The position numbers were made by a program, and so were the translations under genes. Shown here in pieces: positions 5,878 to 63,992 of a stretch of 64,000 nt of DNA (the stretch's first letter is position 1; every line of letters starts with the position of its first letter). Source of the stretch: Macrostomum lignano (Eukaryota); contig NIVC01000181.1 in the NCBI GenBank assembly GCA_002269645.1, forward strand, positions 124,001 to 188,000. Reading direction: 5' to 3'. Under the pieces are notes generated by a model. It was not told the origin of the DNA and did not search any database. It saw only the letters and a list, made by a program, of their open reading frames with translations.

Positions 5878-8372
5878 GGTCCAAATAGAAAAAATCTATA
5901 TTATATAATACATGCCAAAAAATCTTAGTAGGCTCCCTATTATTTTTAAGTGTAGAAAAAACCTATAATAATACCATAGTCGGGAAGGTGGCACAGTGTG
6001 CGCCGGAACTATTTTGATGGCTTTTGAGCACTGTGCGCCGTGCGCCATGAAGAAAAGATTTTGTGCGCCACAGCGCGCCATGATAAGGTAAGTTTAAGGT
6101 AAGGTAAGGTAAGGTATTTATTCTACCATAAGGAATTTACGGTAGACAAATTTGAATTTCATTTATGTATTTTATATCATGATTTACATAACTTACATAA
6201 TTTACATAATTTTATTTTACAAATTATGGAATTAGGCCTGACACACATATATTTTGCAAAGTATAACGAAGTGTAAGTTGTGTAATTATATATTTTTTTC
6301 AGCGCCATGCGCCATGTGCGCCGCCAAAGCATTTCCAATTTTTCCTTGTACGCCGTGTGTGCCAAAAAAGGGCCAATTTGCGCCGGAAAATTCACCAAAA
6401 ACTGCCACCTTCCCAGCTATGGTAATGATATTAGAACAAAGTTTAATCTTAATAATGGCCTACTAGCCACAAAAAAGAATAGATATTAGATACTATTTTT
6501 TAATACTTAAATTATTGCAATATTGACACTGACTATTATATAAAGGAGAAGGACTAGCCTACATCTGATTTTATAAAATATTTTTTCATTTTTTCATTAG
6601 GCCTAATTGTTATTAATGACATATTAATGAGAACATGATCATTGACATTGATATTGACCAATGCAATATCACTTAACTTTCAATGAATTTTAATAGATGT
6701 TTACTAACATTCAGAATTAATTAAGTTAATTAAAATTAACAATGCCAATGAATATAGAGCCAATATTGATAAAGATAGGTCATAGTAGTTATTTGAAATT
6801 CAGATGCCTTCTATTCTTTTATTATGTATAGGCCTACCAAAAATTAAAAAAAAATTATAGGCCTAGAATAAATTGGTTTAGCTTTGTTTTCTCAGTATTT
6901 ACAATTAAAGAAAGTCAAAATTGTGGGGATCAAAATTAATTTTGTTAGCTTATATACAAACTGTTGACTTTCACACTGGACCCTACCCAAGACTGAACTG
7001 GAGCCGAGGGAAAGGCAAGGCTAGGCTAGGCCGAGCCTAAAAATGTTGCTCAGTCATCCTAGATTACTGAGTCACTCTTTAGAACTCTGGATTAAGGATT
7101 GAAGAGATGCGATACACATGCAGTTACCGAATATTTGTAAGAACACTTCATACATGTACATGTAGTTGCAAATGAGGATACTGTAATTCAGAGTGAGGTG
7201 GAATGGATGCCACCGAATTCGTCAACATCTAACAGTCCAATAGGGAATAATCGCGTAATAAAGTGTCGAAAAATGAAGCATCATATTTTTGTGATTTTTG
7301 TTGATTTTTAAACTTTTTATATTCATAACCATTTCCAGGAGGATAATGCGTAATCTACTAACAAATGATCCGAAAGCGACGCTATACCAATCAATTAACC
7401 GCATCTAGGAAATTTTTTGTTTCGAATTGTTTCAAACAAAATTTACCATTTGTTATATTTATATTCGTAAGAGCTTGATATTTTATAGAAATGTGCCTTT
7501 AAGAACCAAAAAAGTTTATAACTAATTCAAATTTTGGCTTGTAATTGTTGTTGCATTTTAGTCAGTTTAGTACTAGTTTAAAGCCTTGTTTCAAGTCCGG
7601 CTCAGAAATTAATTGTATTGAGTGATCTCGCACTTGGTTGACTAATGCTTGTGCACCTCTGGTGCGTATTTTGGCCTAGTTACTATGACATTCTATGGGT
7701 CTTTTGGACACCTATCTGTTTTTAACTGTAGCTAGCCACTGGCTGGCAATTAAATAGCCTAAAATAGTATTAGTACCCAAGCCAAAATTGAATGATGCTT
7801 GCCTTTTTTGGTCTTTTTTCAATTATTTTTATGCTTTGTATAGCCGTACTCAATGAAAAATGTAATGTCGATGCAAATAGGTAAATATAATAAATATTTA
7901 TAGATATTATGGTTTTAGGGCTTAGGCTCTTTCTTAGGCTTATAGTTAAAATTGTCAATTTTAATTCAACTATTTTACTTAGCTTACACTATAATAAATG
8001 TAAGACAACTTAAGTTAAAAATCTAACATTTTTATCTCTTTAAGATTTTTCTTATCCTTAATAGAAAATAGGCCTAGTTAATAAATACAAGATATTATTG
8101 AGTATCAGACTAAAATAGGCCTAGCCTAGCTAAGAATCTAGGCCTAAAATTGTATAGATTAAAATCAATAGGCCTAAAGAGTCTAAGACAAGTCAGCAAT
8201 CTTCTAACTTACTGTGTTAAATTATTTTCACATGAAAAATAGGCCTTGTTTTTAGTAAAATACAAAGTCATTAATCATTAGAGTCAATAATAGTGCTTAA
8301 CCCAATACAAAAAGTTCTCTAACACCTTTGGCAAAGAAAAAAGGTGGCACCACAAGTACTCATTGAGGTGAG

Positions 8373-10581
8373 TGATGTAACCACGCTCTGGTCGCGGGAT
8401 AGGGCATGGGAACTTTTTCGAAAGTGCCTCCTATCCCGTGCACCCTCTGCACAGAGCTGTCGAGACTCGGCCAGGTCTCCGACCGGGCCTGGAGACTCCC
8501 GCTCTGCTGCACCCCTCCTGCTGCCTTGGTCCCGTCTCTCCTGCCGCCACACCTGCCTTTCCGGAGCCCCCTACCCCTTTCTGTACCTCCCCCTCTACCC
8601 TATCTCTTCTGTTTCCGCCCTATTCTTCCTGTACTTTCCCTTTCCCCCCTCTTTTTATCTCTCTCTGCACTTTTTTTTCCTGCGCTGTCCCCTCCTTCTC
8701 TGTGTCTACTTACAGTATTTTGTGTGCTCACCGTCTCCCCATCCCCTCCCAAACTCCCAAACGGTGACGCAAGTCGTGTGACCCCTTCTTCCCCCCCCGA
8801 TGACTCATCGATGACTCATCCCCCTCTCTTGCGCAACCTTTTCTCATGCTATTGTTCTCCTCCCAAATTTCTCATGCGACACCCACCCCACCTCCGCTTC
8901 TATTGTTCTCGTTTTTGATTCTTTTGTTCTCTCGACCCCCACCAATTATCACATTTTCTCCGATTTTCTCTTTCTTTTGTTCTCGTTTTCGCACCTAATT
9001 ATCACCTTTTCTCCAATGTTTACTTTTCCATTGTTCTCAGTTTTCCCCAATTATCCCCGATTTCCAATTCCTTTGTTCTCGACCCCAGCCCTATTGTTCT
9101 CAATGTTTGCTTGCGCAACACTTTCGCGACCTCCCGCTGCGCCAATTATCCCCCCACCCCACCTCCGGATTGCGCAATTTCCCTATTTCTCATGTTGCTA
9201 TGCCGGTCTCATGCTTCTCATCATGACTCATTCTGACGTCATTCTGCCGGCAGCCAATCAGAGAGAGGGAGCCATGGTAACGACCTTGAGGAGGCGGCTG
9301 TGAGGTCTATAAAAGGAAGCGATTTCGGCATGAGAATCCTCAACTTTTTCCTCTCCTCGTCCTTCTTTGGACTTGCCGTCAGATTGAGTTCTGACCCATT
9401 CGTCTATAAGACGAGTCCCTGCCGGTCCGCGGTCTGTTACCGCCAAGTTATCCTTAGCTCCCCAAGTGAGCTCGCCTATCGGCCAGCGGTCTGACACCGC
9501 CCAGCATCATCAGCATCGCCTGATCCACATCAGCGCCTCGTCGCTCCAGCGCATCGCCGCTTCACCGTCTGCCTGATTGCAGCCTACAGCCGCCACCGGT
9601 CACTCCGCCTCTCTCTCTCTCTGTGCAGCTGCCGGTAAGTTCCTGTTACTAATTTGTGCTCTAATTGCCTTTGCTTATCCGGGGTTTGCCTATTTTCCAT
9701 TGTCTGATTAGAGAGCTGAGCCAATTGTGATACCGTATCTTTTGCTGTATTTTACTCAATAGTGAAGCCGCCTAATTGCCTGATTATTCGCCTAAGGGCC
9801 TAATTATTAACTATTAACTAACTTCATCATTATTCAATCTTTCACCATCATTTCACTCATGGCTTGCTAAGCCTTTCTCCCGGGGTGGCAAAGCATAAGG
9901 AAGTTTGGGTAAGCTAATGGCCTCTCCCTGTGCAAAGCCCGCCTGTGAGTGCGTGCTGCGGGGCCGCGTGTGCGTGCAGTAGAGGGATTAGCGAGTCTTG
10001 GCACAGAATGGCAGTAGGAAGGTTGCAACCCCATGCTAACGCGTCCCTTCGCCCTGAGCAATCTAAACTGTAGACAGTACATGTTCGCCTCATACTACTC
10101 TTAGTAATCAAAGTCGCAAGTCAGCCTCGCTCACAGCCACAAAGGATCCCCTGCTGAGAAATCCTCCAGGATTGAGCCCAGAGTTCCCGATCATGCCCCA
10201 AGCAGAGTCCCTGTACTCGGCTGCATGCGTCTCCCCTGTTAGCCTAAATCCCCTGGTAACCAATCCAGGCGGGGCTCTAGCCTCGAGAGGTCTGGTAGAA
10301 AGATCCAGGTGCGCCAGGTCACATAGAGTGGTGGCAGCCACTCGGTCATACTATGACCGAGTGACCAACTATTGCACCTTGGCTACAGGTGGGGTCCATG
10401 TGGGTCCTTGGCCCTCTGGTCACGAAGCGCTACCAAAGCTACTAATCATGTGGGCGGGACAGTCTGGTGCTGGAGGTCCGTCAGGTCATTGCCCGGTCAT
10501 AGGCAGCCTACGGTCATTGCCCCCTCTAGTCATGCGTTCGTCTCTCTACGGAGCGGACAGGCGACAAGGGCGGTTACATCA
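8373..10581 (+). repeat. 5' LTR (2209 bp)
   Basis: TG...CA termini with 10-bp perfect inverted repeat. Matches 17420-19623 except 5 homopolymer-length bases and 2 substitutions that I noticed (9996, 10007). Confidence 0.95.
8801..9314 (+). promoter_or_regulatory. LTR U3 enhancer/promoter: AP-1 x3, C/EBP x3, CRE, CCAAT, TATA
   Basis: TGACTCA at 8801, 8812, 9224; TTGCGCAA at 8829, 9111, 9170; TGACGTCA at 9234; CCAAT at 9254; TATAAAA at 9308-9314. Confidence 0.7.
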
Positions 10582-10584
10582 AAA

Positions 10585-10602
10585 TGGTGGCAGCGGTGGG
10601 AT
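10585..10602 (+). other. Primer-binding site complementary to tRNA-Leu 3' end
   Basis: TGGTGGCAGCGGTGGGAT, 3 nt after the 5' LTR; complementary to the ...ATCCCACCGCTGCCACCA 3' end of eukaryotic tRNA-Leu (from memory). Confidence 0.85.
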
Positions 10603-12953
10603 CTGGTGCAAACAGCGCTGAGTTTCGGACTGGTGGTTTAGATGTGACAAGCGCACCTGTGGCATCCCTCAGAATGGTGGCCGAAGCGCAAAGAGTGCCA
10701 TGTCTAAATCTACCAATCGTAAAAATCGCCAATCGTCATTCTCTTCTCCCATGGCGTGAGGCAACAAAATCCAAAAATATTAATGTAACTTTTCAAATTT
10801 TTCGGGCTGCGAATTCGTTCAATTCATTCGAAATTTCCAAATTCATTCATTCGCCAAAAGCCCCTGATTCAATTTAAAATTAATTTAGCCGATCAGTTTC
10901 AGCGCTAGAAAGTGTGAAGTGGTAGACGAGCGGATTTGATTACAATCAGAATAGCTACCTGGTAACGGAGTGTGTAAAGAACTGCGAAAGTGAATTTTCC
11001 GGACTCACTTTCTATTTCATGGTAATATGCTTTATTTCCCCTCCCTTTCTTTCTCTCGCCTAGCCTACAGCAGAACTGTGTGAGTGTTGAGGTGGACAGC
11101 CAGCCAGGTACGGAAGCCTCATCACGCAAGCACAGGGAAGCTGGAAGCGAAGCATTTCTTTCCTTTGTCCTACCTCTTTCTTTTACTCGGGGGAGTGTAA
11201 CAGTCGCTCTCCCTGATCGCTCAGTTAATCCTAGAAATGCGTAGAGACCGGAGCGTGTTTTGTTTGTCCATTAGAATGAACAGCTATCAAGGGCTATGGG
11301 GAACTCGCTATATATGCATAGTAAGGGAAGCAGTAGTCATGGCCTTGGAAACATTGGGGGATACCAAAGTCTCGCAGGAATGGGAATAGCGGTGTGATTG
11401 TATCTCTGTAGGGTATCAGTGTGACTCAAAAATCTCGGGCTAAAAAAAGTGTCACCTCCTATGGAATACCTGCGATCAGCCCGGACCTGAATTCTGCGGT
11501 AACCCCTGGTGCCTTCATGGCTGGGATTCGATCCCAACGTGTCTGCTGACTCTCCCCACTGTATTGCAGACCCGGTAGTAACTGCTTTGGTTGCATTTGG
11601 GCTGGTGCAGTGGCTGGAAATAGTAGATCCCATAGTATCCTATTGATAGTGGAGTTCAGTGAGTATTGGAATGGTGTACTGGAAGTCTGGTGGCCCCCAG
11701 TGATCTCGTAATGTTTCCTGCTGCATTCTCCTCCTTTAGTAATTCCTCCCCCCTGCTGTCAGTCTGATAGGGGAGGTGGGTGTGCCAATCAGCCCGACCC
11801 GGTAGAACGGCGCTCCTGCCCGACTTGTCAGCCTGGCCCAGGAAGGCGCTATTGCGCAACTCTTTTCCCCTCTGGCCACTGCAGCCCACTAAGCGCTTAG
11901 ACGCAGGGTTGCATGCAGTCCCCTAATGTAAAGCCCCGGTACATAGAGTGCCACCCCAGTGCCCCGCAAGGTCAATAAGACGGGTTGACGTCTCTGGCAA
12001 CTTGGAATAACCTAGATGGAGGTACCGCTGTCTCCTGGTAGAACCGGGCGTTCAAGTACAGTAAAGTGGAGAGGCTGACAACTGTAGGACTTTCTCCGCC
12101 ATCAGATAAAGGTCCCAAGTATGCTATTTCGAGCTGCAGCAAAGGTGGAGTATCGGAGGGGCAAGCATTTCAGGAAGATACTCACTTAGGTCTGTTTATC
12201 CTAGGAAAGCGGGCGAGAGTTTCAGGCTTGTAATCCGCCTAACCTGAAAACTTCGGGGACAGTTTAGTCTGGACTCCCGCTGCGCGCCTTCGCTCTGAAC
12301 AGAAGGGGAGGTCTTGGTTTTTGTGGATTCTGCTAGACGTAGGGGAGCTGGATTCCCGCCTTTTGTGAAGCTGCGTGTACAAGATTGGTAGTCCTGAGGT
12401 GGAAGCCCCACTGGACTCCGACGGTTTTCCGGCTGTGCAAGGGCAGTAAAGTGGGAGGACCTCCATGGGGATTGCTCCCGCCACTTGGGTTTTTGGGTCC
12501 AGGCGCCAACGCTTCTTCGTAGTAGCTTTCTTAAGGAAATGGGGTCCGGCGCGCAACCCTAGGGGAGAATTTGTACAGGTGCCGTAAGTCCGTTTACGGT
12601 CGGCATTTGGGTTCCCTAGCATGGCCGCAAAATGAAGGTCAAGTCTCTCTGAATAGCCAATTTTTCCCTGTCAGGATGTGCCATAGACAACTGGTAGTGG
12701 TAGCCGCAGTTTGAGTCAGTGTGCTTTGCCGAGTGAAGCCGTTAGGACTGCCTAAATGGAATTATGTGGAGCCACCCGTTTTTCAATTTGTTTTCTTCGA
12801 CGCCGCAAGTATGTGGGTTTTGTCTGTGTTTGTGTGTGTGTGAGTGTGTTTGTGTGTTTCGGATCAACTTTTCGGTCTTTACCTGTAGTTGCCCCGGTTT
12901 TCTTTTCTTTTCCTTCCCGGTGGTGGGTACTCCCCCAGCTATCCGGCATTCAC

Positions 12954-14398
12954 ATGTCACGGGCGCGTGGAGATAGGGTCGTAGAAGCTGTGTGCGCAGA
13001 CGCCCCTGGTCAACCACCCTCGGCCGCTGACACCCCAGCAGTTGCCGCCCCCGCAGCCGCAATGGCCGCAGCCGCTGGTAACCAGGTCCCTCAGCCTCCA
13101 GAAGCAGTAGTAGTTGAGGAACCAGATGAAGGAGTAGCAGCTCCCGCTCCCAATCAGGGTGGCGCAGCAGCCGCCGCTGCTCCCCCGGACGCAGCCCAGA
13201 ATCCTCCTCAGGCAGTCCCGCAGCTAGGAGACTTAGTTGCCGCTATAGCCAATGCGTTTAACCAGCTAAACATGGGCCAAGACGCCCAGAGGCCGAAAAT
13301 CTACGTAGAAAAGTTCTCTCCCGGCGAACACTGTTTTGTGCAATGGGTAGAGAGAATGATCTACAAGCTGGACGCGGAGAGAACTGTAGGAGATCAGGCT
13401 AGGAAGCAGGTGCTCATCTCGCACCTCCCAGGTGAATTTCAGAACTTAGCCTTAGGATTGGACGGGCAATTGCCCTTTGAGCAGTTCGTATCTAGATTAG
13501 GAGAGCAGTTGGGCGAGGCCAACACTGATCTGGCTAAGAGAAATAAGCTGAAGAATCTGAGCCAGAAACCCGGCCAATCACATAGTGCTTTTGCTGCTAT
13601 GATAAGATCTCAGATAACGGCCATGTTTCCTCAGATTCAGGGTGAGCAGAGAGAACAAGAAATCGTGTACACCTACTTGGAACACGCTAAGCTCCCCCGC
13701 CAGGTCAGACAAGATCTGTTGAGCCGTCGCTGGCAGACAATTGAGCAGGTGTTAGAACAGCAGCAAGCCCTGTTAGAAGCCGCAGACTTAGCCGGGAAAT
13801 GGGACAGTAGTGGCCCGCCCAGGTCTGAGTCCCGCACCGAAGTCCGTCTGCAACCTCAGCAGCCACCCAGGCCCCCTCGCAAGTGGGTCAGGATGGTGAA
13901 CCAGGAAGCTGACGAGACGGAGGAGGACGGTGACGGCCTATCAGAGATGCAAGAGAGGTTGGGCGCGCTAGAGCAAACGCAAAAAGATCTGCGCAACCAG
14001 CTGGTGCAGCTCAATGAAACTATGAAGGCGACAGCAGAGTCTGTTGCCCAGCTGCCCCAGCAGATGAGGCCCCCTCGCCCCGCCACTCCCAACAGGAACT
14101 GGAGGCAGGGGCAGGGCGGCTCTAATAGCAGTAGGAACTGGCGCCAACCCCAGCCCCCGCCGCTTGCAATTCAGGAGGCGCCCACGCCGCCGGCGCCGGG
14201 TGTGCAGCAGCAGCAATTGCAGCTTCGTGCGCCACTGATCGCCATAGGCAAGATTTAGAGGAGTGGGGCAGAGATATGTTAGACGAGGCTACCAGGGAGA
14301 GGCAGGAGAGGCTCGCCCAGCTGCGCGCGCAAGCTCTGATGCCTCCTCCTTCCACGCCTGAAGAGCCCCCGGGTTCGGGAAACCCGTGGGAGGGCTGA
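12954..14398 (+). CDS. gag: Retroelement Gag (capsid-like core, no CCHC knuckle); apparent 1-nt deletion at ~14232 splits off the C-terminus
   Basis: Likely ATG at 12954 after a polypyrimidine/CAG acceptor. KIYVEKFSPGEHCFVQWVERM and LPRQVRQDLLSRRWQTIEQVLEQ resemble CA-like segments. The ORF stops at 14258, but the -1 frame continues (P)TDRHRQDLEEWGRDMLDEATRERQERLAQLRAQ...SGNPWEG* to 14398. Confidence 0.8.
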
Positions 14399-14439
14399 AT
14401 GGCCCGGCCCGAACTCAGCCCCGTTCCCTCTCTAGGGCC
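14377..14439 (+). other. -1 programmed ribosomal frameshift signal: G_GGA_AAC heptamer plus candidate pseudoknot
   Basis: GGGAAAC at 14377-14383 is in X_XXY_YYZ phase with the Gag C-terminal frame, and -1 leads into the protease frame. 8-nt spacer; stem 1 GGGCTGA(14392-98)/TCAGCCC(14415-21); stem 2 GGCCC (loop)/GGGCC(14435-39). Confidence 0.8.
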
Positions 14440-14901
14440 CAGCTTAACCTGCCACGTCCGCCCAGCAAGAAGTTTAGATTTGAGAAGGTACCCGATTTCT
14501 ATCAGCCAAGACCAGCTAGAGGACAACGCGGGAGAGATATTGTTGTAGAGTTGCCAATTGAGAATGTTCCCACCCGCCTCCTGGTAGATGGGGGCAGTGC
14601 GCTGTCTTTGCTAACAGTCAAAGACTTTACTAAAATTACCGGACAGAGTGTGGAGGCCCTGGAGCCCCCATGTGTGAAGGCCGTGTCCTACACGGGCAAT
14701 GAATTAGAGATGCTAGGCCAGGCCACCCTCACAGCAGTTATTGGGCTAGAAGAGGTGAGAATCCTCTTTCTGGTCGTTGGCAATTCAGCAGCAGTTTCCC
14801 TCCTGGGTAGTGCTTTTCTAGCCAGTACGCATGCTATCATAGACTATCGAACAGAAAAGGTTTACTTGCTAGGTGTGAGTCTCCCATTCGACCCCCGCTG
14901 A
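14386..14901 (+). CDS. Retropepsin-type aspartic protease (expressed as Gag-Pro fusion), ends with a stop and no downstream pol
   Basis: LLVDGGSALSLL active-site motif (D-G-G variant), SYTGNELEMLG flap-like segment, SLLGSAFL C-terminal motif, TGA at 14899-14901. Confidence 0.88.
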   Translation: MGGLNGPARTQPRSLSRAQLNLPRPPSKKFRFEKVPDFYQPRPARGQRGRDIVVELPIENVPTRLLVDGGSALSLLTVKDFTKITGQSVEALEPPCVKAVSYTGNELEMLGQATLTAVIGLEEVRILFLVVGNSAAVSLLGSAFLASTHAIIDYRTEKVYLLGVSLPFDPR

Positions 14902-15485
14902 GTAACAGATCGGTAGCTAGCCAGTGATTGCTTAATTCCCCCCCCCGATTCGCGTGTCGAAATTTTGCTCGTGTTGCCCCGTTGGAGACCGCTTTTCGCG
15001 TATTTACGTATGCCCTCTATTACTCGAATTTATGTTGTGACCTCGTGCTCGTTGGTGTTGTTTAAATATCTAAGATTTTAGCTCGAAAATTAGGCCCGTA
15101 CAGTATGCGTTAATTCCCTATCAGTAAATATTAACTTGGAAACTAGTAAAATTTCTATGGGTCTGCTCCACAGGAGGTCCTGCCCCGCTGTTTAAGATTT
15201 TCTGGGAACAATGGAAGTCTGGGACCGTAGGAAATTAGCACCTTTAGGTCTGATTTCGTGTGTTTGTTCACACTTTGTGAAAGTCCGATTTTGGGAAACT
15301 TTTAATTGGTTTCGATGAGGCAATAGGGGGCATTCAATGTAATTAAGTTTATCAGGCAAATGGGGCAGCAATTAGTTTAGAGTAGGCCAGTGGTTTAGTC
15401 AATGTAAAGTCAGGTAAGTAATTAAAGTCAAGTTATGGGGACAGATAGTTCAGAATTAGTAAGTAAGCATTAAGAACCACCAGCA

Positions 15486-15892
15486 TCAGCAGTTGGGAAG
15501 CCGCAGAAATAGCTCCAAGAGCAGTAGCCAGTGCATTGTGAGACCGGCTATTAGGGCCGTCGACAGCACGACCAAATGCCAGGAGCCGTCGGTCTCCACC
15601 ACAGGGGTTGGCAAGGGCTGTGGAGCGGCAGCCACGGGCGTCACCGCGGCGACCGGCGGCGGAGCGTGCGCTCGGGCTGACAACGGCGGTGGTACCGGAT
15701 GCCAACCGGCCCCGGACGCTGGTTCGCTGGCGGCCCGGCGGTCGCATGGCCCGGGAGCCGCGGCGCCTATGTCACCAGATGGCGCAGCCGGCCCAGAATC
15801 AGAGGGGGCGTCCGGCTCTGAATGGCTGTCTTCGGGCGCTTCGTAGTCGGACTCCTCTTCAAGGATGGGCTCGGCTACTAGCGGCCGGAATC
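15486..15892 (-). CDS. Candidate antisense terminal exon inside the LTR element: acidic, Pro/Ala-rich, C-terminal transmembrane-like segment; start codon not located
   Basis: Strong acceptor TTCTATTTCATCCCTTAAATTCTCATTTTCAG|G (AG 15894-15893). 135 open codons: FRPLVAEPILEEESDYEAPED...PVAAAPQPLPTPVVETDGSWHLVVLSTALIAGLTMHWLLLLELFLRLPNC*. Confidence 0.45.
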
Positions 15893-15983
15893 CTGAAAAT
15901 GAGAATTTAAGGGATGAAATAGAAGTAGGGAACTAGCCGGGTATTAGGATGTAGATAGATGGGGATTTTAACTTTATGGCGTG

Positions 15984-16350
15984 TGGTAGTGGCCTTCCTG
16001 GGGGTTTCTTCCTTTCTTCATTCCCTCTCCTTCCCTTGAGCTCTAGGTGATCAAGTAGTGGTAGCCTTCTTCCCCGCCTTCTTTTAATGATACACCTCTA
16101 AGTGATGGCAGTTTTTCGTCTTCCTCTCCTCTGGTAGAAGGGCAAATGGTGGCAGTTTCCCCGGGCAATCCACTCTAATGGTGACGGGTTCCCTCTTTCT
16201 CTTCCCTGTAATGTACAATGGTGGCAGTTTTCCCTAGCAACCTCTCTCAAAATGGTGGCGGATCCTCCTTTTCTTTTCTTTAGTAATGCGCCAAGGTGGT
16301 GGTAGGTTCCCCTTTCTCTTTTATAATAGTACATCAAACTGGTGGCAGTC
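15984..16350 (+). repeat. Degenerate ~32-47-bp tandem array whose core resembles the PBS (TGGTGGCAG)
   Basis: Cores at 16056, 16103, 16147, 16179, 16219, 16253, 16297, 16340 (exact at 16147, 16219, 16340), separated by pyrimidine tracts. Confidence 0.7.
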
Positions 16351-16702
16351 AAATTAATGATTAATTCCTCTTTCAAACTCTTTCGGCTGTTAAGTTTTTG
16401 AGGGTTTCGGAGATGTGAATGAGGCCTGTGTGTGTGTTTCTGTGTGTGCCACTATTTTTAATTTCACTATTTTTCAATAAAAACTTGTTTTTCTAATATG
16501 CCACCTTTTACTAATAATATACGAGTCTTTGTTGTGCGTCAATCAAATTCATAAAAATAAGTCTGTGTTGGCCTCTCACTCTTAGTACCGTAAGAAAAGA
16601 CATATTGTACTACTACAGTTGGCTCAGTTTAATATGAAAGGCATGGCAAGTGGGTGGATTTCGTTTAACGTATAGGCGAAAGGAAATCAGGTTGGTGATG
16701 GG

Positions 16703-16815
16703 ACTTACCGAGTAGTTGTATAGTTTGGAAAATCGCGCTGAGTGCCTTGGTTGGAAACTGCGACTCCGTGTAGGTTGCAGGCAGCCGGCTCCCGTTATCA
16801 GTGGCGCCTTTTATA
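16703..16815 (-). promoter_or_regulatory. Internal antisense Pol II promoter with short first exon and splice donor
   Basis: Minus-strand TATAAAAGG at 16815-16807 after a GC-rich upstream region, and consensus donor CG|GTAAGT (GT at 16708-16707) about 100 nt downstream. Confidence 0.55.
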
Positions 16816-17402
16816 CAGTGGCCAGCGCACGGCGCGGCGCCTCCCAGCCTACAACCGATCGCCCCGAAGCCCTCTGACTGGCTGAAGCGGGGTCCGAGCC
16901 TTCAAGGACGCTAGGCCTCCGTGCGGTTGAACTCCCGGCGAAATTAGCTTATTAATTTACTGCGCTGCATTAGTATTTTTCCCCTGTGTAATTGTCATTC
17001 TCCCGAGGCTCTGCCCTTGGCTGTGTGCTAGCAACCCTTCCCCCCTTCTTTTTCCCCACTTCCCTCACCCTTCCCCGTTTCCTCTCTTTCCCAGCTGCGC
17101 TTCTATCCAATTATGATAATTTATTGTTGACAATTCGCTATTTTTCTCCCTACTATTGCGCTGTCTGTGTTTCCCCCCTCCCACTTTAGCCACAGCAACA
17201 GTTGAAATTTTTGAAATTCTGTATTGCACTTCAACCTATGTATCTCGTTTTGTGAATTTATTGCTATCCCCTCTATTTTATCGCCTTTTTCCATTCCCGC
17301 TCGCGGTTTGTTAATTCTGTGATTTCACGTTCGGTTGAGATCCCGCTCCCGTCTGTGTGGTTCCATGTTGGGCAGTGATGATGACGGAACCAGTTCCGTC
17401 AC

Positions 17403-17419
17403 AAAAGGCAGTGGGGGTG
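17403..17419 (+). other. Polypurine-tract-like sequence
   Basis: AAAAGGCAGTGGGGGTG abutting the 3' LTR. Confidence 0.6.
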
Positions 17420-19623
17420 TGATGTAACCACGCTCTGGTCGCGGGATAGGGCATGGGAACTTTTTCGAAAGTGCCTCCTATCCCGTGCACCCTCTGCACA
17501 GAGCTGTCGAGACTCGGCCAGGTCTCCGACCGGGCCTGGAGACTCCCGCTCTGCTGCACCCCTCCTGCTGCCTTGGTCCCGTCTCTCCTGCCGCCACACC
17601 TGCCTTTCCGGAGCCCCTACCCCTTTCTGTACCTCCCCCTCTACCCTATCTCTTCTGTTTCCGCCCTATTCTTCCTGTACTTTCCCTTTCCCCCCTCTTT
17701 TTATCTCTCTCTGCACTTTTTTTCCTGCGCTGTCCCCTCCTTCTCTGTGTCTACTTACAGTATTTTGTGTGCTCACCGTCTCCCCATCCCCTCCCAAACT
17801 CCCAAACGGTGACGCAAGTCGTGTGACCCCTTCTTCCCCCCGATGACTCATCGATGACTCATCCCCCTCTCTTGCGCAACCTTTTCTCATGCTATTGTTC
17901 TCCTCCCAAATTTCTCATGCGACACCCACCCCACCTCCGCTTCTATTGTTCTCGTTTTTGATTCTTTTGTTCTCTCGACCCCCACCAATTATCACATTTT
18001 CTCCGATTTTCTCTTTCTTTTGTTCTCGTTTTCGCACCTAATTATCACCTTTTCTCCAATGTTTACTTTTCCATTGTTCTCAGTTTTCCCCAATTATCCC
18101 CGATTTCCAATTCCTTTGTTCTCGACCCCAGCCCTATTGTTCTCAATGTTTGCTTGCGCAACACTTTCGCGACCTCCCGCTGCGCCAATTATCCCCCACC
18201 CCACCTCCGGATTGCGCAATTTCCCTATTTCTCATGTTGCTATGCCGGTCTCATGCTTCTCATCATGACTCATTCTGACGTCATTCTGCCGGCAGCCAAT
18301 CAGAGAGAGGGAGCCATGGTAACGACCTTGAGGAGGCGGCTGTGAGGTCTATAAAAGGAAGCGATTTCGGCATGAGAATCCTCAACTTTTTCCTCTCCTC
18401 GTCCTTCTTTGGACTTGCCGTCAGATTGAGTTCTGACCCATTCGTCTATAAGACGAGTCCCTGCCGGTCCGCGGTCTGTTACCGCCAAGTTATCCTTAGC
18501 TCCCCAAGTGAGCTCGCCTATCGGCCAGCGGTCTGACACCGCCCAGCATCATCAGCATCGCCTGATCCACATCAGCGCCTCGTCGCTCCAGCGCATCGCC
18601 GCTTCACCGTCTGCCTGATTGCAGCCTACAGCCGCCACCGGTCACTCCGCCTCTCTCTCTCTCTGTGCAGCTGCCGGTAAGTTCCTGTTACTAATTTGTG
18701 CTCTAATTGCCTTTGCTTATCCGGGGTTTGCCTATTTTCCATTGTCTGATTAGAGAGCTGAGCCAATTGTGATACCGTATCTTTTGCTGTATTTTACTCA
18801 ATAGTGAAGCCGCCTAATTGCCTGATTATTCGCCTAAGGGCCTAATTATTAACTATTAACTAACTTCATCATTATTCAATCTTTCACCATCATTTCACTC
18901 ATGGCTTGCTAAGCCTTTCTCCCGGGGTGGCAAAGCATAAGGAAGTTTGGGTAAGCTAATGGCCTCTCCCTGTGCAAAGCCCGCCTGTGAGTGCGTGCTG
19001 CGGGGCCGCGTGTGCGTGCAGTAGAGGGATTAGCGAGACTTGGCACAGCATGGCAGTAGGAAGGTTGCAACCCCATGCTAACGCGTCCCTTCGCCCTGAG
19101 CAATCTAAACTGTAGACAGTACATGTTCGCCTCATACTACTCTTAGTAATCAAAGTCGCAAGTCAGCCTCGCTCACAGCCACAAAGGATCCCCTGCTGAG
19201 AAATCCTCCAGGATTGAGCCCAGAGTTCCCGATCATGCCCCAAGCAGAGTCCCTGTACTCGGCTGCATGCGTCTCCCCTGTTAGCCTAAATCCCCTGGTA
19301 ACCAATCCAGGCGGGGCTCTAGCCTCGAGAGGTCTGGTAGAAAGATCCAGGTGCGCCAGGTCACATAGAGTGGTGGCAGCCACTCGGTCATACTATGACC
19401 GAGTGACCAACTATTGCACCTTGGCTACAGGTGGGGTCCATGTGGGTCCTTGGCCCTCTGGTCACGAAGCGCTACCAAAGCTACTAATCATGTGGGCGGG
19501 ACAGTCTGGTGCTGGAGGTCCGTCAGGTCATTGCCCGGTCATAGGCAGCCTACGGTCATTGCCCCCTCTAGTCATGCGTTCGTCTCTCTACGGAGCGGAC
19601 AGGCGACAAGGGCGGTTACATCA
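17420..19623 (+). repeat. 3' LTR (2204 bp)
   Basis: Direct repeat of 8373-10581, followed by the TGAG TSD. Confidence 0.95.
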
Positions 19624-20547: not shown

Positions 20548-22104
20548 TATATTTAATATAGCTTTTGCAGCCATTTGGGATTATATATATTTAATTTAAA
20601 AATCTAATATACATTATACATTTGCTATAATCTGTAATGAGCTCTTGTCTATAGTAGCAAGGCTAGTAGCAGTAGCATTTTATTTGGTCCATGATATAGC
20701 TTTATTAATAGGTACTATGATTATGAAGGAGCAAGATTAGCCCTAGAATTGTAGACTATAGGCTATTAAACAAATACTATTATTGGCTTATGATTAAAGC
20801 ATTGGATAGAAGTAAATACCCAAAGGACATTTCAAGGCAGCTGAATCTATAAAGTCATTAATCAGTCAGTAAATTAATGTTATTGTTAAAATCACTAAAT
20901 AAGTAATAGGTTAACAAAGAATAACAAATAAGTAGCATAGTTATTTGTATAATAGCAAGTTGTCATAATGTAACAAATATATGATTGGCATACATGTAAA
21001 GGGCAAAAAATCAAGCTTAGGGGTGCAAAACATGTATGTGTAAAAGGGCAAAAAAGCAAGTTTAAAGGACACAAACTTTGGCTTTTAGGGGGTGCAAATA
21101 TGCCTTATCAAGCTATTGGGGAAATAGGGAGATAGCCATTTTCCCTCCCTCCCTAAATCTGTCCCTAATGCCAATTACCAAAGCAAAGCATAGTGATAAA
21201 GGCCTTCATTGTTTTCACAATAGTTGTATAGTCCATTGAAGCTATTATATAATATTGCTACTAAAGGCTTAAGTTTCAGCTTTTATTATATTTATAAAAT
21301 ACACTGTCTTTGTTATAGATAATTTTTTTGACAATCTGCTTCATAGGATATAAATATTCATATATATATGGTATATGAAGGCACAGTCTAAAGAGGGCAC
21401 TTCTAGATAGCAGATTCCTTAGTTCTATAGGTCAGTAGTGTTGCCATGCTGCAATGAATTGATCAGGCCCTAGGGATTAGTATCTATTTTATGATTTTAA
21501 TTAGTGTAATAAATATAGCATAATTTTTTTTATTTTGAAGCTGTCATCTAGCCAATCAATTTAAAGAATTTACATTCTAGTCTAGGAGAATCAGAATCTG
21601 AAATTTAACTTTTTTGTTCAGCCAGATTTAGGCAATCAGTTTTAAAAAATTGTTTTTAAAGCACACAATATATAGTGGGACAGTTGTATCCATTCCTGAC
21701 TCCTGAACACACGCAACCATAGTGTACTGCAGCTCTGACTTTCCTATCATTAGGCATGTACACTCTGTTTTAAGGGCCAGATTTCATGACTGTGAATTGC
21801 ACAACAACCTCAAAAGCTAATTTTGTGCACAAGCTACAAACAAATGTGACCTTGCATGTAAACAAACCAGGATGCATAGTTTTGAGATTGTGAGCTTATG
21901 AGATGGCGAGTTCCAACACTGACACATTATCCCAGGCTCTTATTAGCATATTAAGAAAGCAATTCAAATTTGCAATTCCTGCAGCATTGCGCAGCCAAGG
22001 CTTGCCGCAATCTTGCACTGGCAGGTTCTTGGGCCAGTTGCCGACCAAAAAAAAAATCTAATTATTAAAATTCAATAATAAAGCCCTAATCTCTCTTTCC
22101 CATC

Positions 22105-25100
22105 ATGACTCAAGCTGAGCAATCATCCGCCAATGCTGCCACCATCGAGGAGCTGTTGAATGCAGACGGCAACGGCCTGGCCTTCATGGATGAAGCCTCC
22201 AAGCCCGACATAATTGTAACTGGCCCGGATCCTGTTGATAACGAAGAGTCTGAGGATGAAGATCAGTTGGTGTCCGTTTCAAGACAGCCGTCCATTGTTG
22301 ACTGCAATGGCGGCAGCGGCAGCGGCAACGAGCTGGAGCCGGAAGATCCGCGCACTCCGCCAGACGGTCAGGAGGACAGCAGCTCGGACTCCGAGTCCCT
22401 AGCCGAGAGTATTTATCATCAGCCGCCAAAAGCGGCAGACAGAGAAGCGGCCAGGCGTCTGGCTAAGCGTCTGTTTCTGCTAGAGGGCTTCCGGCACACT
22501 GACGTAGCGAAGCACCTGTCCCGTAAAAACGATTTCAACACTCTGGTTGGCGAAGAGTACGCCGCTCTGTTCGACTTTAGCGACGACACTTTGGACACAG
22601 CGTTGAGGAAATTTCTTAGCAGATTTTGTCTGCAAGGCGAAACGGCCGATCAGGAGCGGGTATTGCTGCACTTTGCCAAGTCCTACCTGCGCTGCAATCC
22701 CGATAGCTATCCCACTGCCGACTCTTGTCACACCCTAGCCTGCGCCCTGCTGCTGCTGAACAAAGACCTACACGGAGCTATTGGCCAGAGAATGACTAGC
22801 CAGCAGTTTATTGACAATTTGGCTAATTTAAACGAAGGCCAGAATTATCCCAGGGAGGTGCTGAAGTCGCTCTATCAGGCTATTAAGTCTCAGCCTATCC
22901 TCCAGCCAGCCGGTTTGGGACCCATCGATTCCGCTGAGGCAGCGGCCGGATCGGCGGCTGCTGCAGCTGCTGCGACTGTCAAGTCGACCACCTGTGCGCC
23001 GCCAGGCCAACCCGGTGTCAGCGACGGCCAATCAGGCTCGGCAGGCGCTGCTGGCGACACGGCCGGGCTCAGCAATCCGGGCTTGGCGACCGGCGATGGC
23101 AACGGCGGCGGCGGCGGCAGCAACGGTCCCGGCATCGAATTTCGAAAGGGCTTCTTGGTTAGGAAGCACGTGAGTTGGATTTCTGTATTGTTGCCAAGTT
23201 ATAGGTGTAAGCGCTGAGTCAGGCGGGAACAGCTAGAGTCCTTACCTATGAAAGAAGCAAACAAAAATTAACGTAACTTTAGGTAAACGCCATGAGTAGC
23301 TATAACTGTATTTTTAAGGCGGAATGCCTTGTCATCTATTTAGTACTAAGTTTATTTACATTATTTTGAGATTTAATGTTGTCAGCGCTCATTTTAGCGC
23401 CGCACGCACTCATTTTAGCGCCGCAGGCACTTATTTCAGCGCCACAGGCACTTATTTTTGGCGCTGCAGACACTCATTTTGACACTACAGGCAACTCATT
23501 TTAGCGCCACAGGCACTTATTTTTGGCGCCGCAGGCACTCATTTTTGCGCCACAGGCACTCATTTTGGCACCGCAGGCACTTATTTTGGCACCGCAGGCA
23601 CTCATTTTTGCGCCACAGGCACTCATTTTGGCACCGCAAGGCACTTATTTTGGCACTGTAGGCACTCATTTTAGCGCCACAGGCACTCATTTTAGCGCAA
23701 CAGGCACTCATTTTAGCGTCACAGGCACTCATTTTAGCGCCGCAGAGACTCATTTGAGCGCCACAGGCACTCATTTTAGCGCAACAGACACTCATTTTAG
23801 CGCCACAGACACTCATTTTAGCGCCACAGGCACTCATTTGAGCGCCGCAGGCACTCATTTTAGCGCCGCAGGCACTCATTTTAGCGCCGCAGGCACTCAT
23901 TTTAGCGCCGCAGGCACTCCTTTTAGCGCCGCAGGCACTCATTTTAGCGCCACAGACACTCATTTTAGCGCCACAGGCACTCATTTTAGCGCCACAGGCA
24001 CTCATTTTAGCGCCAGAGGCACTCATTTTAGCGCCACAGACACTCATTTTAGCGCCACAGACACTCATTTTAGCGCCACAGGCACTCATTTTAGCGCCGC
24101 AGGCACTCATTTTAGCGCCGCAGGCACTCATTTTAGCGCCGCAGGCACTCATTTTAGCGCCACAGGCACTCATTTTAGCGCAACAGACACCCATTTTAGC
24201 GCCCTAAAGCAAAATTATTGATTTCCACAACGGGTCACCACAAAGTGGGGAGAGAATAAAGCATTTACATGTCCCCCTATAGCCTTTACTGGGGAGAGGT
24301 GATTGATAGATGAATTCCTGCATCTCCACTCAAACAGATCCTCGACTCTGGCGGGCGTCGGACGCGCAAAGGCCGTCGGTCCTGGCGCCGCGTGTACTGC
24401 GTGCTCAAAGACCTCAGCCTGGCCATGCACAAGGACGACTCAGTTGCTGCCGTTGCCGCCGCTTCGCCAGACGCCGAGCTGCGCGTCCATCATTCCTTGG
24501 CCGGCCCGGCGCCCGAGTATACTAAACGGCGCCACGTCTGGCGCCTAAGATTAGCCAGCGGCGCCGAATTGTTACTTCAAGCCGCGTCGCAGGCGGACGC
24601 CGACGCCTGGGTTGAAGCCGTCAATCGGGCAGCCGCTTGGCTGTCCGCACAGGCGCTGCCGGCTCCGGTTGGCAGCCAGCCAGCCTGCGCCTTCGCCCGC
24701 CCGTTGCTGCCTTCTGGCCCGTCCAATTTGCCTATTGCTGAACAGCTGGTCCGGTTTAGGGAACAGGTGAGCGATGGAGTCACTCTGATGCCAGTATGAG
24801 ATCTATGAGGTCAGCGTGAGATTCATGAGGTCGGTATGAGATCTTCGAGGTCGGTATGAGATCTTCGAGGTCGGTATGAGATTCATGAGGTCAGCGTGAG
24901 GTTCATGAAGTCGGTATGAGATTCATGAGGTCAGCGTGAGATTCATGAAGTCGGTATGAGATTCATGAGGTCAGCGTGAGATTCATGAAGTCGGTATAAG
25001 ATTCATGAGGTCAGCGTGAGATTCATGAAGTCGGTATGAGATTCATGAGGTCAGCGTGAGATTCATGAAGTCGGTATGAGATTCATGAGGTCAGCGTGAG

Positions 25101-43734: not shown

Positions 43735-43995
43735 CTCGAAATCACGCCACCGTCTCGTGTGAGCACAGCAGGAGGGAGTGGTTCGGAGGGGGTAGGGTGG
43801 AGCGCCCATGACCGAAACGAGGCAGAGCATAAGAAGTATGATCGATTCCAGAGCTCTGTACTCAAAGCTGTATGCACAGTTGGAGGCAGACGGGTTGAGG
43901 GGCGTTTTAAACTATAAATTTGCATATAAATCAACTATTATAAGTAAAGCTTCCGACTTTCAACTTACTGGCTAAAGGCGACCCTAGACCAAGTA

Positions 43996-44009
43996 GTTAC
44001 CATGGCAAC
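43996..44009. promoter_or_regulatory. RFX X-box overlapping the DHCR7 ATG
   Basis: GTTACCATGGCAAC. Confidence 0.55.
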
Positions 44010-45335
44010 CAAACAGTTGAAACAAGCGGAAGGACCTTTGGTGCAATTTATCAACCGAACAGTCATACCGCTGCTGCTCATCCTGCTGGTTCCGCAGTCG
44101 GTGATGTACCTGTGGTACGCTTCAGTCCACTGTCAGGGCAGCCTGACCGAACTGGCAGATCGTCTGACCAATCGGGGTGGACCCGCGCTGGTCTGGGCGG
44201 CGGTGAGCGTCGCCAACCCGGCTGTCTACGCTGCCATCCTCGCCTTCTGCGCCTTCCAGGTGCTGCTGATGCTGCTGGTGCCGGGTAGGACCTGCTACGG
44301 CACCGAGACGCCCACAGGTCACGTGCCCGAGTACAAAGACAACGGATTCGCGTGCTACCTCATCACCATGGCAACGTTCCTAGCTGGCACGGTCTATCTG
44401 AAGCAGCGCGGCCTGACTCCGACAGTGATTTATGATTATTACGGCGACTTTCTGGCCTCCATGATTCTGCTGAGCTTGGCCTTCTGCTTGCTCCTGTGCG
44501 TCAAAGGCGTCCTGGCGCCGACATCGACTGATCACGGTCGGAGCGGCAACTACCTGTTCGACTATTACTGGGGCACCGAGCTCTACCCCAGAATATGCGG
44601 CATCGACATCAAGGTGTTCACCAACTGCCGCTTCGGTCTGACAGTCTGGGCCCTGGCTGTCGCTGTGTTCGCCTTGAAAAGCTACGAGTTGCACGGTCGA
44701 GTAGTTGACGGCATGGCGGTCACCGCAGCGCTGCAGCTGCTCTACCTCACCAAGTTCTTCTGGTGGGAGGCTGGCTATTATCGAACAATCGACATCATCA
44801 CCGACAGAGCCGGATTCTACATCTGCTGGGGCTGTCTGTGCTTCGTGCCGAGTTTCTACACCCTGGTGAGTCTGTTCATGGTGCGCCAGCCGGAGCCGGT
44901 GGGACCCGCGTGGACAGCCGCCCTGCTGGGCTTCGGTCTGGCCAGCCTGGCCGTCAACTACTGGAGCGATTGGCAAAAGCAGGCGGCCAGAGCCGCGGAC
45001 GGTCAGCTGAACATCTGGGGCCGGCCGGCGCGGGTGATCAGAGCCAAGTACAGCCTGGACAATGGCCAGGAGCGCCAGTCTGTACTGCTTGCAAGCGGAT
45101 TCTGGGCGGTGTCCCGGCATTTCCACTACATCCCGGAGCTCAGCCTGACCCTGTGCTGGTCAGCTGTGTGCGGAACTGGCTGCCACATCATCCCCTACAT
45201 GTACTTCGCGTTCCTCAGCGTACTGCTGTTCCATCGAAGCTTCCGCGACGATAAGAAATGCCGGGACAAGTACGGAAGTACTGGTCCGAGTACTGCAAAC
45301 TGGTGCCGTACAAGATTGTGCCGCTCCTGTTCTGA
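44002..45335 (+). CDS. DHCR7: Sterol delta-7 reductase (ERG4/ERG24 family, DWF5-type), intronless; apparent 1-nt frameshift at ~45276
   Basis: Motifs GTELYPRI, DIKVFTNCRFG, TKFFWWEAGY, DRAGFYICWGCL, SGFWAVSRHFHYIPE, RDDKKCRDKYG. Restoring one A gives the canonical end KYWSEYCKLVPYKIVPLLF* (TGA 45333-45335). Confidence 0.92.
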
Positions 45336-45979
45336 TTCCCTGCAATTCACGGCCAGCTGAAGCAGAAGGACGCTGCAGTCGGCTTTCTTAGAAATACGAC
45401 AAATACTTCAGTTGCTCGTTATGCAACCTTTCGTTATTAACTGATTTCATCTTGACTGTTTAACTAATGGCTTCTTCTTATCGAAAATATAGCGTTCTTA
45501 GTCCCAAAATAGTGAACTTTAAATGCGGCATGTTTTTTGTCGGTTTGTTACATTAGATTTTACACTACTAACAGTAGCTCAAGCGAAAAATGGTTGAAAA
45601 TGTTTTTTTTTAAACGGAAGTAACTGAAAGTAACTGAAATGCTTTTTTAAAAAAACTGTCACAGATAAACAGGAAAACGAGTTGATTTGCTAGCAGATCT
45701 GGGGGCTGCTAATTGGATTTTTTCTGCTTGCCTGGCCATCTCCTTTTCGCTGATGTCCTTTCCTGTCTGCGTCCGGGCCTGTCTTTTGCGCAAGGCCGAA
45801 CAGCAAGCCAAGAAGTCAATATCCGCCGCTGCCCAGTATTTACTAGAAATCCCTGTATATTCAATGTCAAAGTTAATTGAGCTCTGCCGAGAGAACCTCA
45901 ACACAATTTCTCCCAGCTGATTAGTTTCTACGGTAGCTCAGAGCAGGGTGAACCGGAGCTCATGATTCAAGAGTAGTTG

Positions 45980-62652: not shown

Positions 62653-63992
62653 CTAGGGTCGTCAGAAAAGTTCTGTGTATTAGAGAATAGCTCAGCTCTA
62701 TGAATAGCTGAAGAGTTGGGGTTTTAGCCATAGATATATACATATATAAAGAGTCGCTAGCTTCAGTTTTAGAGCAACAGATCATTTCTAGCCAAAATAG
62801 CAGTAATTTTTCAACCACACCCATGGCGCATTCCGTCCCGCGAGAGAGTTTTTCTAAACGCGACAATCGAGCGATCATCAAGTTTCATGTCCTTCAGGGG
62901 CGTTCAGCAACCGAGATTTTTGAAGAAATGCGGCAGACCATAGGAGACTTTTGCCCATCTTATGAGACGATTCGCCGCTGGGCTATTGCCATTCGCAACG
63001 GTAAAGAAGACCTCGACGACAAGCCACGCAGTGGACGACCAACGAGTGCTCGGCCTGACAGCCTGGTGAGTCAGGTGGAGGCAGCCGTGCTGCAGGACCG
63101 GATACTGACCACCAGGCAGCTGGCTGATGCCATAGGGGTGTCCAAGGACTCAGTCCACAAGATCCTGACCGAGGACCTTGGGATGCGCAAGGTCTGTGCC
63201 AAGTGGGTGCCGCATCTGCTCACTGACGATCAGCGGGCTCGGCGGGTCGCCATGTGCGCATCCAACCTGCAGCGGTGTCGGCGGGAGGGCATGGCGTTCC
63301 TGCAGAGGATCGTTGCCTGCGACGAAACCTGGGCGCATTCTTGGGAGGCGGAGTTGAAGCGGCAGAGTGCCACATGGTGCAGGCCAGGTTCTCCGCGACC
63401 TCAAAAGGCCATCCGGAGCATCGGCCAGCTGAAGGTCATGCACGTGACTTTCTTCGACTGGGAGGGTCTGTTGTTCGATCAGCCTGTGCCAGTGAGGCAG
63501 ACGGTCAATGGTGATTTCTACCGTCGGTTCTGGTGAAAGTTCGGCGTGCCATTCGGGACAAAAGACCTGCACTTCACGCGGCTGGCCAGACTCTGCTTCA
63601 CGACAACGCAGCCCCGCACCGAAAGCAAGCGTGCTGGCTACGATCGAGTCGTGGGGGTGGGAAATTCTTCCGCATCCGCCTTATTCCCCGGACTTAAGTC
63701 CATGCGACTTTTTCCTCTTCCCTCGCATCAAGGAGTCGATGCGAGGCCAGCGTTTCAGCACAGAGGAAGACGTGAATCAGGCCTACAAGGCTGGCATTGC
63801 CGCCGTGACGAACAATGGCATGACTACAGGCATTGACGGGCTGGTGCGGCGTTGGGAGAAGTGTATTGAAGCTGAGGGCTCATACTTTGAGTGAATAGAT
63901 GTTAAGGAAGACATTTGTAACTTTTCATGTTTCTACTGTTTATCGTTCTCAAGTTATTACAATATACACAGAACTTTTCTGATATCAGTTAG
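62653..63992 (+). mobile_element. Full-length mariner transposon (1340 bp), TA TSD, imperfect TIRs
   Basis: Left CTAGGGTCGTCAGAAAAGTTCTGTGTAT, right ATACACAGAACTTTTCTGATATCAGTTAG; TA at 62651-52 and 63993-94. Confidence 0.9.
62823..63894 (+). CDS. Mariner DD34D transposase with two apparent 1-nt frameshifts (~63527, ~63620)
   Basis: HTH region, PRSGRP, WVPHLL, ACDETW, LLHDNA, YSPDLSPCDFFLF. After restoring two bases there are exactly 34 residues between the 2nd and 3rd Asp. Confidence 0.9.

Follow-up and report, generated by a model that had tools for sequence, protein, structure and literature searches.

A probable three-exon antisense gene for a predicted membrane-anchored protein in a pol-less LTR retrotransposon family of Macrostomum lignano

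We found that a pol-less LTR retrotransposon family of Macrostomum lignano probably carries a conserved antisense gene of three exons, from which full-length copies would make a 215-residue product with a predicted membrane anchor. That a spliced, protein-coding antisense gene is real at the level of the family can be stated with high confidence.

The LTR element and the structure of the antisense gene

The window, that is, the whole stretch of 64,000 nucleotides that was analyzed, contains an LTR element at positions 8373 to 19623. The features of the element and of the antisense gene are listed below.

8373–10581, plus strand: 5' LTR, with TG...CA ends and a 4-bp target duplication (TGAG)
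9308 and 9633, plus strand: TATAAAAGG and donor-like CG/GTAAGT, respectively, within the 5' LTR
10585–10602, plus strand: primer-binding site, complementary to the tRNA-Leu 3' end
12954–14258, plus strand: gag, 434 codons in the window copy and 481 in intact sisters
14362–14901, plus strand: retroviral-like aspartic protease frame, overlapping the gag end (E of 1e-7 to retroviral-like aspartic protease 1, solved structures)
15301–15306, minus strand: ATTAAA motif, a candidate poly(A) signal for antisense transcripts
15486–15892, minus strand: coding part of antisense exon 3, residues 81 to 215 of the family protein
15498–15581, minus strand: conserved hydrophobic C terminus, with a predicted membrane helix (residues 187 to 204) and then an amphipathic helix in which His, Glu, and Arg are invariant
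15831–15872, minus strand: acidic motif EPILEEESDYEAPE, whose core EEESDYE is kept in all four diverged lineages
15893–15937, minus strand: exon 3 acceptor AG (15894–15893) and polypyrimidine tract (33 of 43 pyrimidines), used in the run X12 junction
16101–16348, plus strand: seven degenerate TGGTGGCAG-like motifs spaced by ~40 nt, resembling the first half of the primer site and lying inside the antisense intron
16413–16506, strand-neutral: junction patch where long sister copies have ~2 kb more (sense ORF3, ORF3 promoter motifs, and antisense ATG exon 2)
16708–16707, minus strand: GT of the exon 1 donor (CG/GTAAGT)
16709–16786, minus strand: antisense exon 1, non-coding and without ATG, joined to exon 2 in run X2
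16815–16807, minus strand: antisense TATA box TATAAAAGG, also kept in the RT-bearing partner family
17400–17419, plus strand: purine-rich tract, likely the PPT, preceding the 3' LTR
17420–19623, plus strand: 3' LTR

The two LTRs, each 2.2 kb long, differ by 2 mismatches and 5 gap letters, and the element is young. Its TG...CA LTRs, short target duplication, tRNA primer site, and purine tract are those of a Ty3/gypsy LTR retrotransposon, as are its gag and aspartic protease, Gag being assigned only by position and by the 39% identity of its capsid region to the Gag of a partner family described below. Gag gave only weak matches in Pfam and no match in a sequence search, while the protease DGG motif is present in all four lineages. 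The primer-site sequence had 12 genomic matches, and the three that were checked were all tRNA-Leu. The window gag is shifted in frame close to its 3' end, possibly through an assembly error, given that the identical short form recurs. RT, RNase H, and integrase were not found between the window LTRs, so the element does not have the enzymes of an autonomous Ty3/gypsy retrotransposon; they are present in the LTR-sharing partner. No heat-shock element was found in the element. The TGGTGGCAG-like motifs reach a density of 7 in 0.25 kb, compared to 0.23 per kb across the window, and on the genomic-RNA strand they could play a role in tRNA-end binding or packaging. In the genome, the tail of the antisense protein had at least 55 full matches (62 matches), but contigs cannot be counted as insertions because published work describes the assembly of this species as redundant (PMC12801592).

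Elsewhere, the window holds a Sec7-domain frame (22090–23217), an ERG4/ERG24 frame (43948–45360), a Mos1-like transposase (62712–63536), and a 20-bp satellite (32597 to about 35000), all unrelated to the antisense gene.

A sequence-only reading of this DNA had proposed a spliced antisense gene for a tail-anchored protein, and the motifs, donor, acceptor, and 135-codon frame (one split Gly codon plus 134, with TGA at 15488–15486) on which it drew are all present as listed. The antisense promoter is located just inside the 3' LTR boundary on the element side and points back into the element, and the 5' end of exon 1 was placed ~30 nt downstream of the TATA box by inference. The TATA box is conserved and the exon 1 donor is used, whereas contigs by their nature do not reveal a start site. 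The proposed mirroring of the sense LTR promoter by TATAAAAGG and CG/GTAAGT held at the level of the motifs but not beyond, a local alignment score of 21 being reached in 63 of 300 shuffles.

The ATG-bearing exon, which that reading had been unable to find, is absent from the window copy and was missed for this reason. It lies in the ~2 kb that longer copies have in addition, together with a 449-aa sense ORF3 and its promoter motifs. This antisense exon 2 of 245 nt, opposite the start of ORF3, has an acceptor, an ATG 4 nt inside, and a donor. It adds 80 codons and one further base, which keeps the reading frame of exon 3. Ten of the 40 scored candidates align to the window unbroken, and most of the remaining ones end at 16412.

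Both junctions of the three-exon gene were observed, each in one contig of one run and with a short side of 26 to 28 letters. Run X2 (depth of 7.5) joins exon 1 to exon 2 (1729>3134 on the long copy L080), and run X12 (depth of 28 versus 12 for the intron contig) joins exon 2 to exon 3 (L080 3378>4432), both with GT..AG on the antisense strand, although these runs are RNA by guess, with none on record as RNA, and their contigs carry no strand information. Against the window copy, the exon 3 junction shows up as an alignment that breaks off at 15893. Runs X4 and X17, two of the four aligned to L080, showed neither junction. The exon-exon join was found as DNA in 0 of 173 loci, and an open frame of 215 aa was found in none of 87 genomic matches. 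Direct splicing of donor 16708 to acceptor 15893 was not seen in any of the seven presumed RNA runs, and sister copies join each of these sites to the middle exon, which the window lacks; because contigs drop rare forms, the missing exon 1-exon 3 junction is no proof of absence. The UniRef model P0013, an automatic prediction from M. lignano, matches the exon 2 plus exon 3 translation in all 215 residues. In a second model, P0008, exon 2 is followed by the exon 3 variant that has diverged most (73% identity), and the NCBI model P0012 has a slightly different exon joint.

Selection on exon 3 and properties of the predicted protein

Exon 3 evolves as protein code under purifying selection. The dN/dS of the frame, which the sequence-only reading had suggested comparing across copies, was 0.20 (P of 7e-7), 0.32 (P of 4e-6), and 0.56 (P of 0.14, not significant) against three diverged lineages, with changes at the three codon positions numbering 9/8/24, 23/19/41, and 9/8/13, respectively. 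The two other antisense frames gave values of 1.05 to 1.94. Furthermore, none of the three lineages has an indel in 402 nt of exon 3, compared to 7 to 10 in the 581 nt past the stop. Conservation is highest in the acidic core and over the final 36 codons (dN/dS of 0.13, 0.09, and 0.36 for the latter), and the tail is still 43 to 49% identical in a distant remnant. The sense frame that has the same third codon positions as exon 3 shows an equally low dN/dS (0.29 to 0.52), and the codon test by itself does not tell the two frames apart (3 versus 0 diagnostic changes). This sense frame was nevertheless discounted as coding sequence because one or two stops interrupt it in every lineage and it lacks splice signals. 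Exon 2 lies in the mirror frame of ORF3, a frame that stays open almost by default, and no significant additional constraint was detected (0/9 versus 33/144, P of 0.21); the acceptor, ATG, and donor of exon 2 persist in two lineages with a far-diverged ORF3 (dS of 1.7 for L099).

An open frame arising by chance in GC-rich DNA and flanked by cryptic splice sites, against which the sequence-only reading had itself cautioned, is a very improbable explanation of these data. Indeed, the exon is 68% GC, its frame remained open in 17% of 20,000 shuffles, and the TATA box and the donor are short consensus motifs. However, an open frame combined with a tail hydropathy of at least 2.0 occurred only once in the 20,000 shuffles, and a chance frame does not account for the codon selection, the lack of indels, the conserved splice sites, or the observed junctions.

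Frame breaks in sister copies that left gag and pro intact had been named as evidence that would speak against the gene. In young copies, the exon 3 frame is full-length in 23 of 30 loci and is broken 0.6 to 1.4 times per kb per copy, which falls within the range of gag and pro (0.7 to 2.7 times), so that this adverse pattern was not found. In long copies, the values per kb are 1.41 for exon 3, 0.71 for gag, and 2.68 for pro, exon 3 being broken twice as often as gag, and in short copies they are 0.62, 1.8, and 1.87, respectively. Since read contigs have no indel in exon 3, its breaks in young copies point to assembly errors. Among the substitutions in exon 3 of young copies, 10 of 14 alter the residue.

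The predicted protein starts with MSTLRR, is rich in Ala, Ser, and Pro, and has two Cys and no lysine. An Arg-rich amphipathic N terminus, which could also be a mitochondrial or nuclear signal, is followed by the acidic Ser/Tyr motif. A Pro-rich linker then leads to the helix, which is hydrophobic throughout its 18 residues, and the protein ends in an amphipathic segment. A Kyte-Doolittle scan found the sequence pattern of a tail anchor, namely a lone hydrophobic segment in the last ~30 residues and no signal peptide, and hydropathy peaks at 2.0 to 2.15 in all four lineages. The helix holds a His and a Glu and may lie along rather than across the membrane. Neither P0013 nor P0008 matched a Pfam family at E values up to 1, and no Atlas match was found. 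The seven protein matches all came from M. lignano, with no homolog outside the species, and the gene identifier Mlig001352 has no entry in the supplementary tables examined, although other tables may hold it. Thus, for the family, the junctions and selection support a spliced antisense protein-coding gene whose product has a conserved hydrophobic C terminus, but for the window copy, which is without the ATG exon, the proposal is not supported.

The window copy, ORF3, and an LTR-sharing partner family

The lack of the ATG exon makes it most probable that the window copy produces no antisense protein. An exon 1-exon 3 transcript would have a first ATG that opens a different frame (104 aa). We considered an in-frame rescue and rejected it, the only in-frame ATG lying in the last 16 codons and giving 16 aa. 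A start provided by the spliced leader, which ends in ATG (PMC8629364), was likewise rejected, as it is out of frame at 15892. A non-AUG start within the open exon 1 frame may be used. The window copy is likely to be carried along as a passenger, and its exon 3 would still be intact because it is young and has been exchanged with long copies. Its subfamily shares one deletion, found at seven different insertion flanks, and five further deletion types likewise abolish exon 2 function. Since copies without exon 2 kept inserting, the gene is dispensable in cis.

The divergence of L099, L100, and L096 from L080 varies by module (for L099, ORF3 dS of 1.7, gag of 0.17, and pro of 0.03), and the window junction region is 92% like L099 and 75% like L080. 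By sequence comparison, modules thus appear to be frequently exchanged among lineages. ORF3 encodes 449 aa (L080 3427–2081, minus strand), is intact in 15 contigs at ≥99%, and is preceded by a TATA box, two CCAAT motifs, and GGAA motifs. It is strongly conserved (dN/dS of 0.06 to 0.14) and is a mostly helical orphan, with two genuine, unnamed distant relatives (P0004 and P0005) among three matches. ORF3 had no match in Pfam, in 7995 candidates, or in the Atlas, and two fold models of low confidence (pLDDT of 37 and 42) gave no usable structural match.

Other arrangements were seen among the loci. Short-type elements form head-to-tail arrays with common LTRs (L151–L153 and L145–L146). L096, L097, and L101, which belong to the lineage whose exon 3 has diverged most, carry an insertion of ~2.1 kb with integrase fragments in the ORF3 promoter region (L080 3530–3533). 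A complete Ty3/gypsy element is nested in a short copy (L095 3520–9308) and has a cold-shock-domain match before the protease in its pol frame (E of 9e-7). Finally, L124–L138 represent a second gag-protease family with 40% protease identity and a DSG motif, in which neither a pol directly behind the protease nor an exon 3 homolog was found.

A search with the LTR-primer junction gave 62 matches. We fetched 15 that were previously unassigned, of which 9 belong to a second family and 6 are members, fragments, or truncations of the window's family. This partner family comprises 10 loci (L156–L164; for example, L157 2973–7601, minus strand) and has the LTRs, primer site, leader, and first ~52 gag codons in common with the window family, with an identity of 97 to 99% across 8372–13111 and 16585–19623. 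Past the gag start, it has a single Gag-RT-RNase H-integrase frame of 1543 aa, intact in two of the nine fetched loci. No D[TS]G motif, Pfam protease, or match to a four-sequence protease profile was found in any of the nine. In all nine, the antisense promoter and exon 1 are retained and face the integrase end, while exon 2 and exon 3 are missing.

Complementary non-autonomous LTR pairs, in which a Gag-PR element is matched by a Gag-RT-RH-IN element, have been described in other eukaryotes. The window family and its partner, which like these pairs have shared LTRs, a shared primer site, and complementary enzyme sets, likely replicate as two components. The two would then be packaged together, and the window-family protease would cut the polyprotein of the partner in trans. 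The protease-bearing element of the pair carries what appear from sequence to be two orphan accessory genes, one of them antisense and spliced.

Relation to known systems and possible functions

HBZ of HTLV-1 is spliced, and ASP of HIV-1 overlaps env in a mirror frame. The M. lignano gene resembles them as a minus-strand accessory gene and in the mirror-frame overlap of exon 2 with ORF3. Unlike them, it has its promoter just outside the LTR, shows no sequence likeness to them, and resides in an element that is not a retrovirus (no env). An antisense promoter has also been described for HTLV (PMC7264820). Plant and fungal LTR retrotransposons carry additional antisense ORFs with their own internal promoter (PMC7264820 and PMC11963269). 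In Grande (gene23), RIRE2, Retand, PvRetro13, and Boty, such an ORF is conserved family-wide between the coding region and the 3' LTR (PMC7264820), and the M. lignano gene is likewise antisense, conserved, present in most copies, and located in that interval. It differs in its animal host, its three exons and two introns, its predicted membrane anchor, its overlap with a sense accessory gene, and an element without pol. The plant and fungal ORFs have nuclear or TRP28/SMC domains (Retand type), whereas P0013 and P0008 match no Pfam family. We found no description of the family or the gene in the literature searched, which covered neither subscription journals nor the earlier classification of LTR elements in M. 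lignano, and the main text of PMC13524379 does not mention antisense genes.

Alphaherpesvirus Us9 and polyomavirus middle T are tail-anchored viral adaptors, and Us9 of HSV-1 is lysine-free. The layout of the antisense protein is analogous to theirs, with a putatively disordered cytosolic body, an acidic Ser/Tyr cluster, and a C-terminal anchor, and, like Us9, it is free of lysine. The likeness is one of layout alone, no homology having been detected. Our best guess, which we would put at about even chances, is that the antisense protein is a tail-anchored, mostly disordered membrane adaptor acting in trans.

According to this adaptor model, the TATA promoter near the 3' LTR would drive a transcript back into the element, and splicing of exons 1, 2, and 3 would yield the 215-aa protein from the first ATG, 4 nt into exon 2. 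In an LTR element, which replicates via RNA, introns and an internal poly(A) signal can persist when they are antisense; here, both lie on the opposite strand and would therefore survive the genomic-RNA step. The disordered protein would hang from an internal membrane by its C-terminal helix, and its short motifs would recruit host sorting or signaling proteins where particles assemble or travel. Full-length copies would supply it in trans, and the window family would borrow its copying enzymes from the protease-less partner.

We weighed this adaptor model against three others. It is possible, though unlikely, that the antisense RNA is the main product and the protein secondary, the pre-mRNA running across all of ORF3 and its promoter, and across the partner's integrase end, whose activity it would lower through interference or double-stranded RNA. 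Short copies and the nine fetched partner loci, the latter without exons 2 and 3, indeed retain the promoter and exon 1, and non-coding antisense RNAs are known from micropia and other LTR elements (PMC7264820). However, the shared block could be retained simply because it hitchhikes with the LTR and PPT, and an RNA function leaves unexplained the codon-level selection and an avoidance of indels that ends at the exon 3 stop. A linked pair of antisense protein and ORF3, acting as poison and antidote or as regulator and target to favor spread of the element, appears quite improbable. The strong conservation of ORF3 fits such a pair, and all six internal deletion types remove the function of both ORF3 and exon 2, but their overlap alone accounts for this joint loss with a probability of 0.28, and ORF3 offers no functional clue.

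The suggestion that the protein substitutes for Env, as a small fusogen or pore for cell-to-cell passage of particles, seems improbable to us and is not supported by the protein layout. In its favor, the protein has one conserved hydrophobic helix, and its invariant His, Glu, and Arg lie on about the same side. In flies, env-less elements rely on a small membrane protein for such passage, the sORF2/FAST-like proteins of the MDG1 group being sense, unspliced, N-out, and myristoylated, with a basic patch behind a central helix (bioRxiv 10.1101/2025.03.14.642691), and short transmembrane ORF3s occur in rotifer elements (PMC5408684). Both the sORF2/FAST and the M. lignano proteins would be small membrane accessory proteins of an env-less Ty3/gypsy element. 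However, proteins of the former type (60 to 210 aa) have an N-terminal ectodomain of 10 to 50 aa with MGxxxS/T, whereas the antisense protein starts with MSTLRR, has its helix at the extreme C terminus (residues 187 to 204 of 215) with one Arg behind it instead of a basic patch, and comes from an antisense, spliced gene. Env itself is a sense gene product with a signal peptide, a large ectodomain, and a fusion domain; here we found an antisense gene, no hydrophobic N terminus, two Cys, and no Pfam match. Overall, we place the adaptor model ahead of the regulatory RNA, the fusogen or pore, and the ORF3 pair, with a confidence that is only about even.

Surveys of M. lignano transposons that start from RT (PMC12801592) would miss this pol-less family, and databases list the product of the antisense gene as an anonymous host protein. 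The protease-less, LTR-sharing partner suggests an obligatory cooperation of two defective elements. One could even imagine, as an unlikely extension, a segmented, virus-like retroelement of this regenerating flatworm, in which Gag, protease, and the two orphan accessory genes come from one segment and Gag, RT, RNase H, and integrase from the other. The intron-containing antisense membrane protein would then guide their common particles along host membranes to stem or germ cells, with no envelope protein involved. The function of antisense accessory genes in LTR elements is a question that has been posed mainly for plants. It is directly testable here because this animal case combines mapped exons, selection on the protein, natural copies that have lost an exon, and a host with RNAi and transgenesis.
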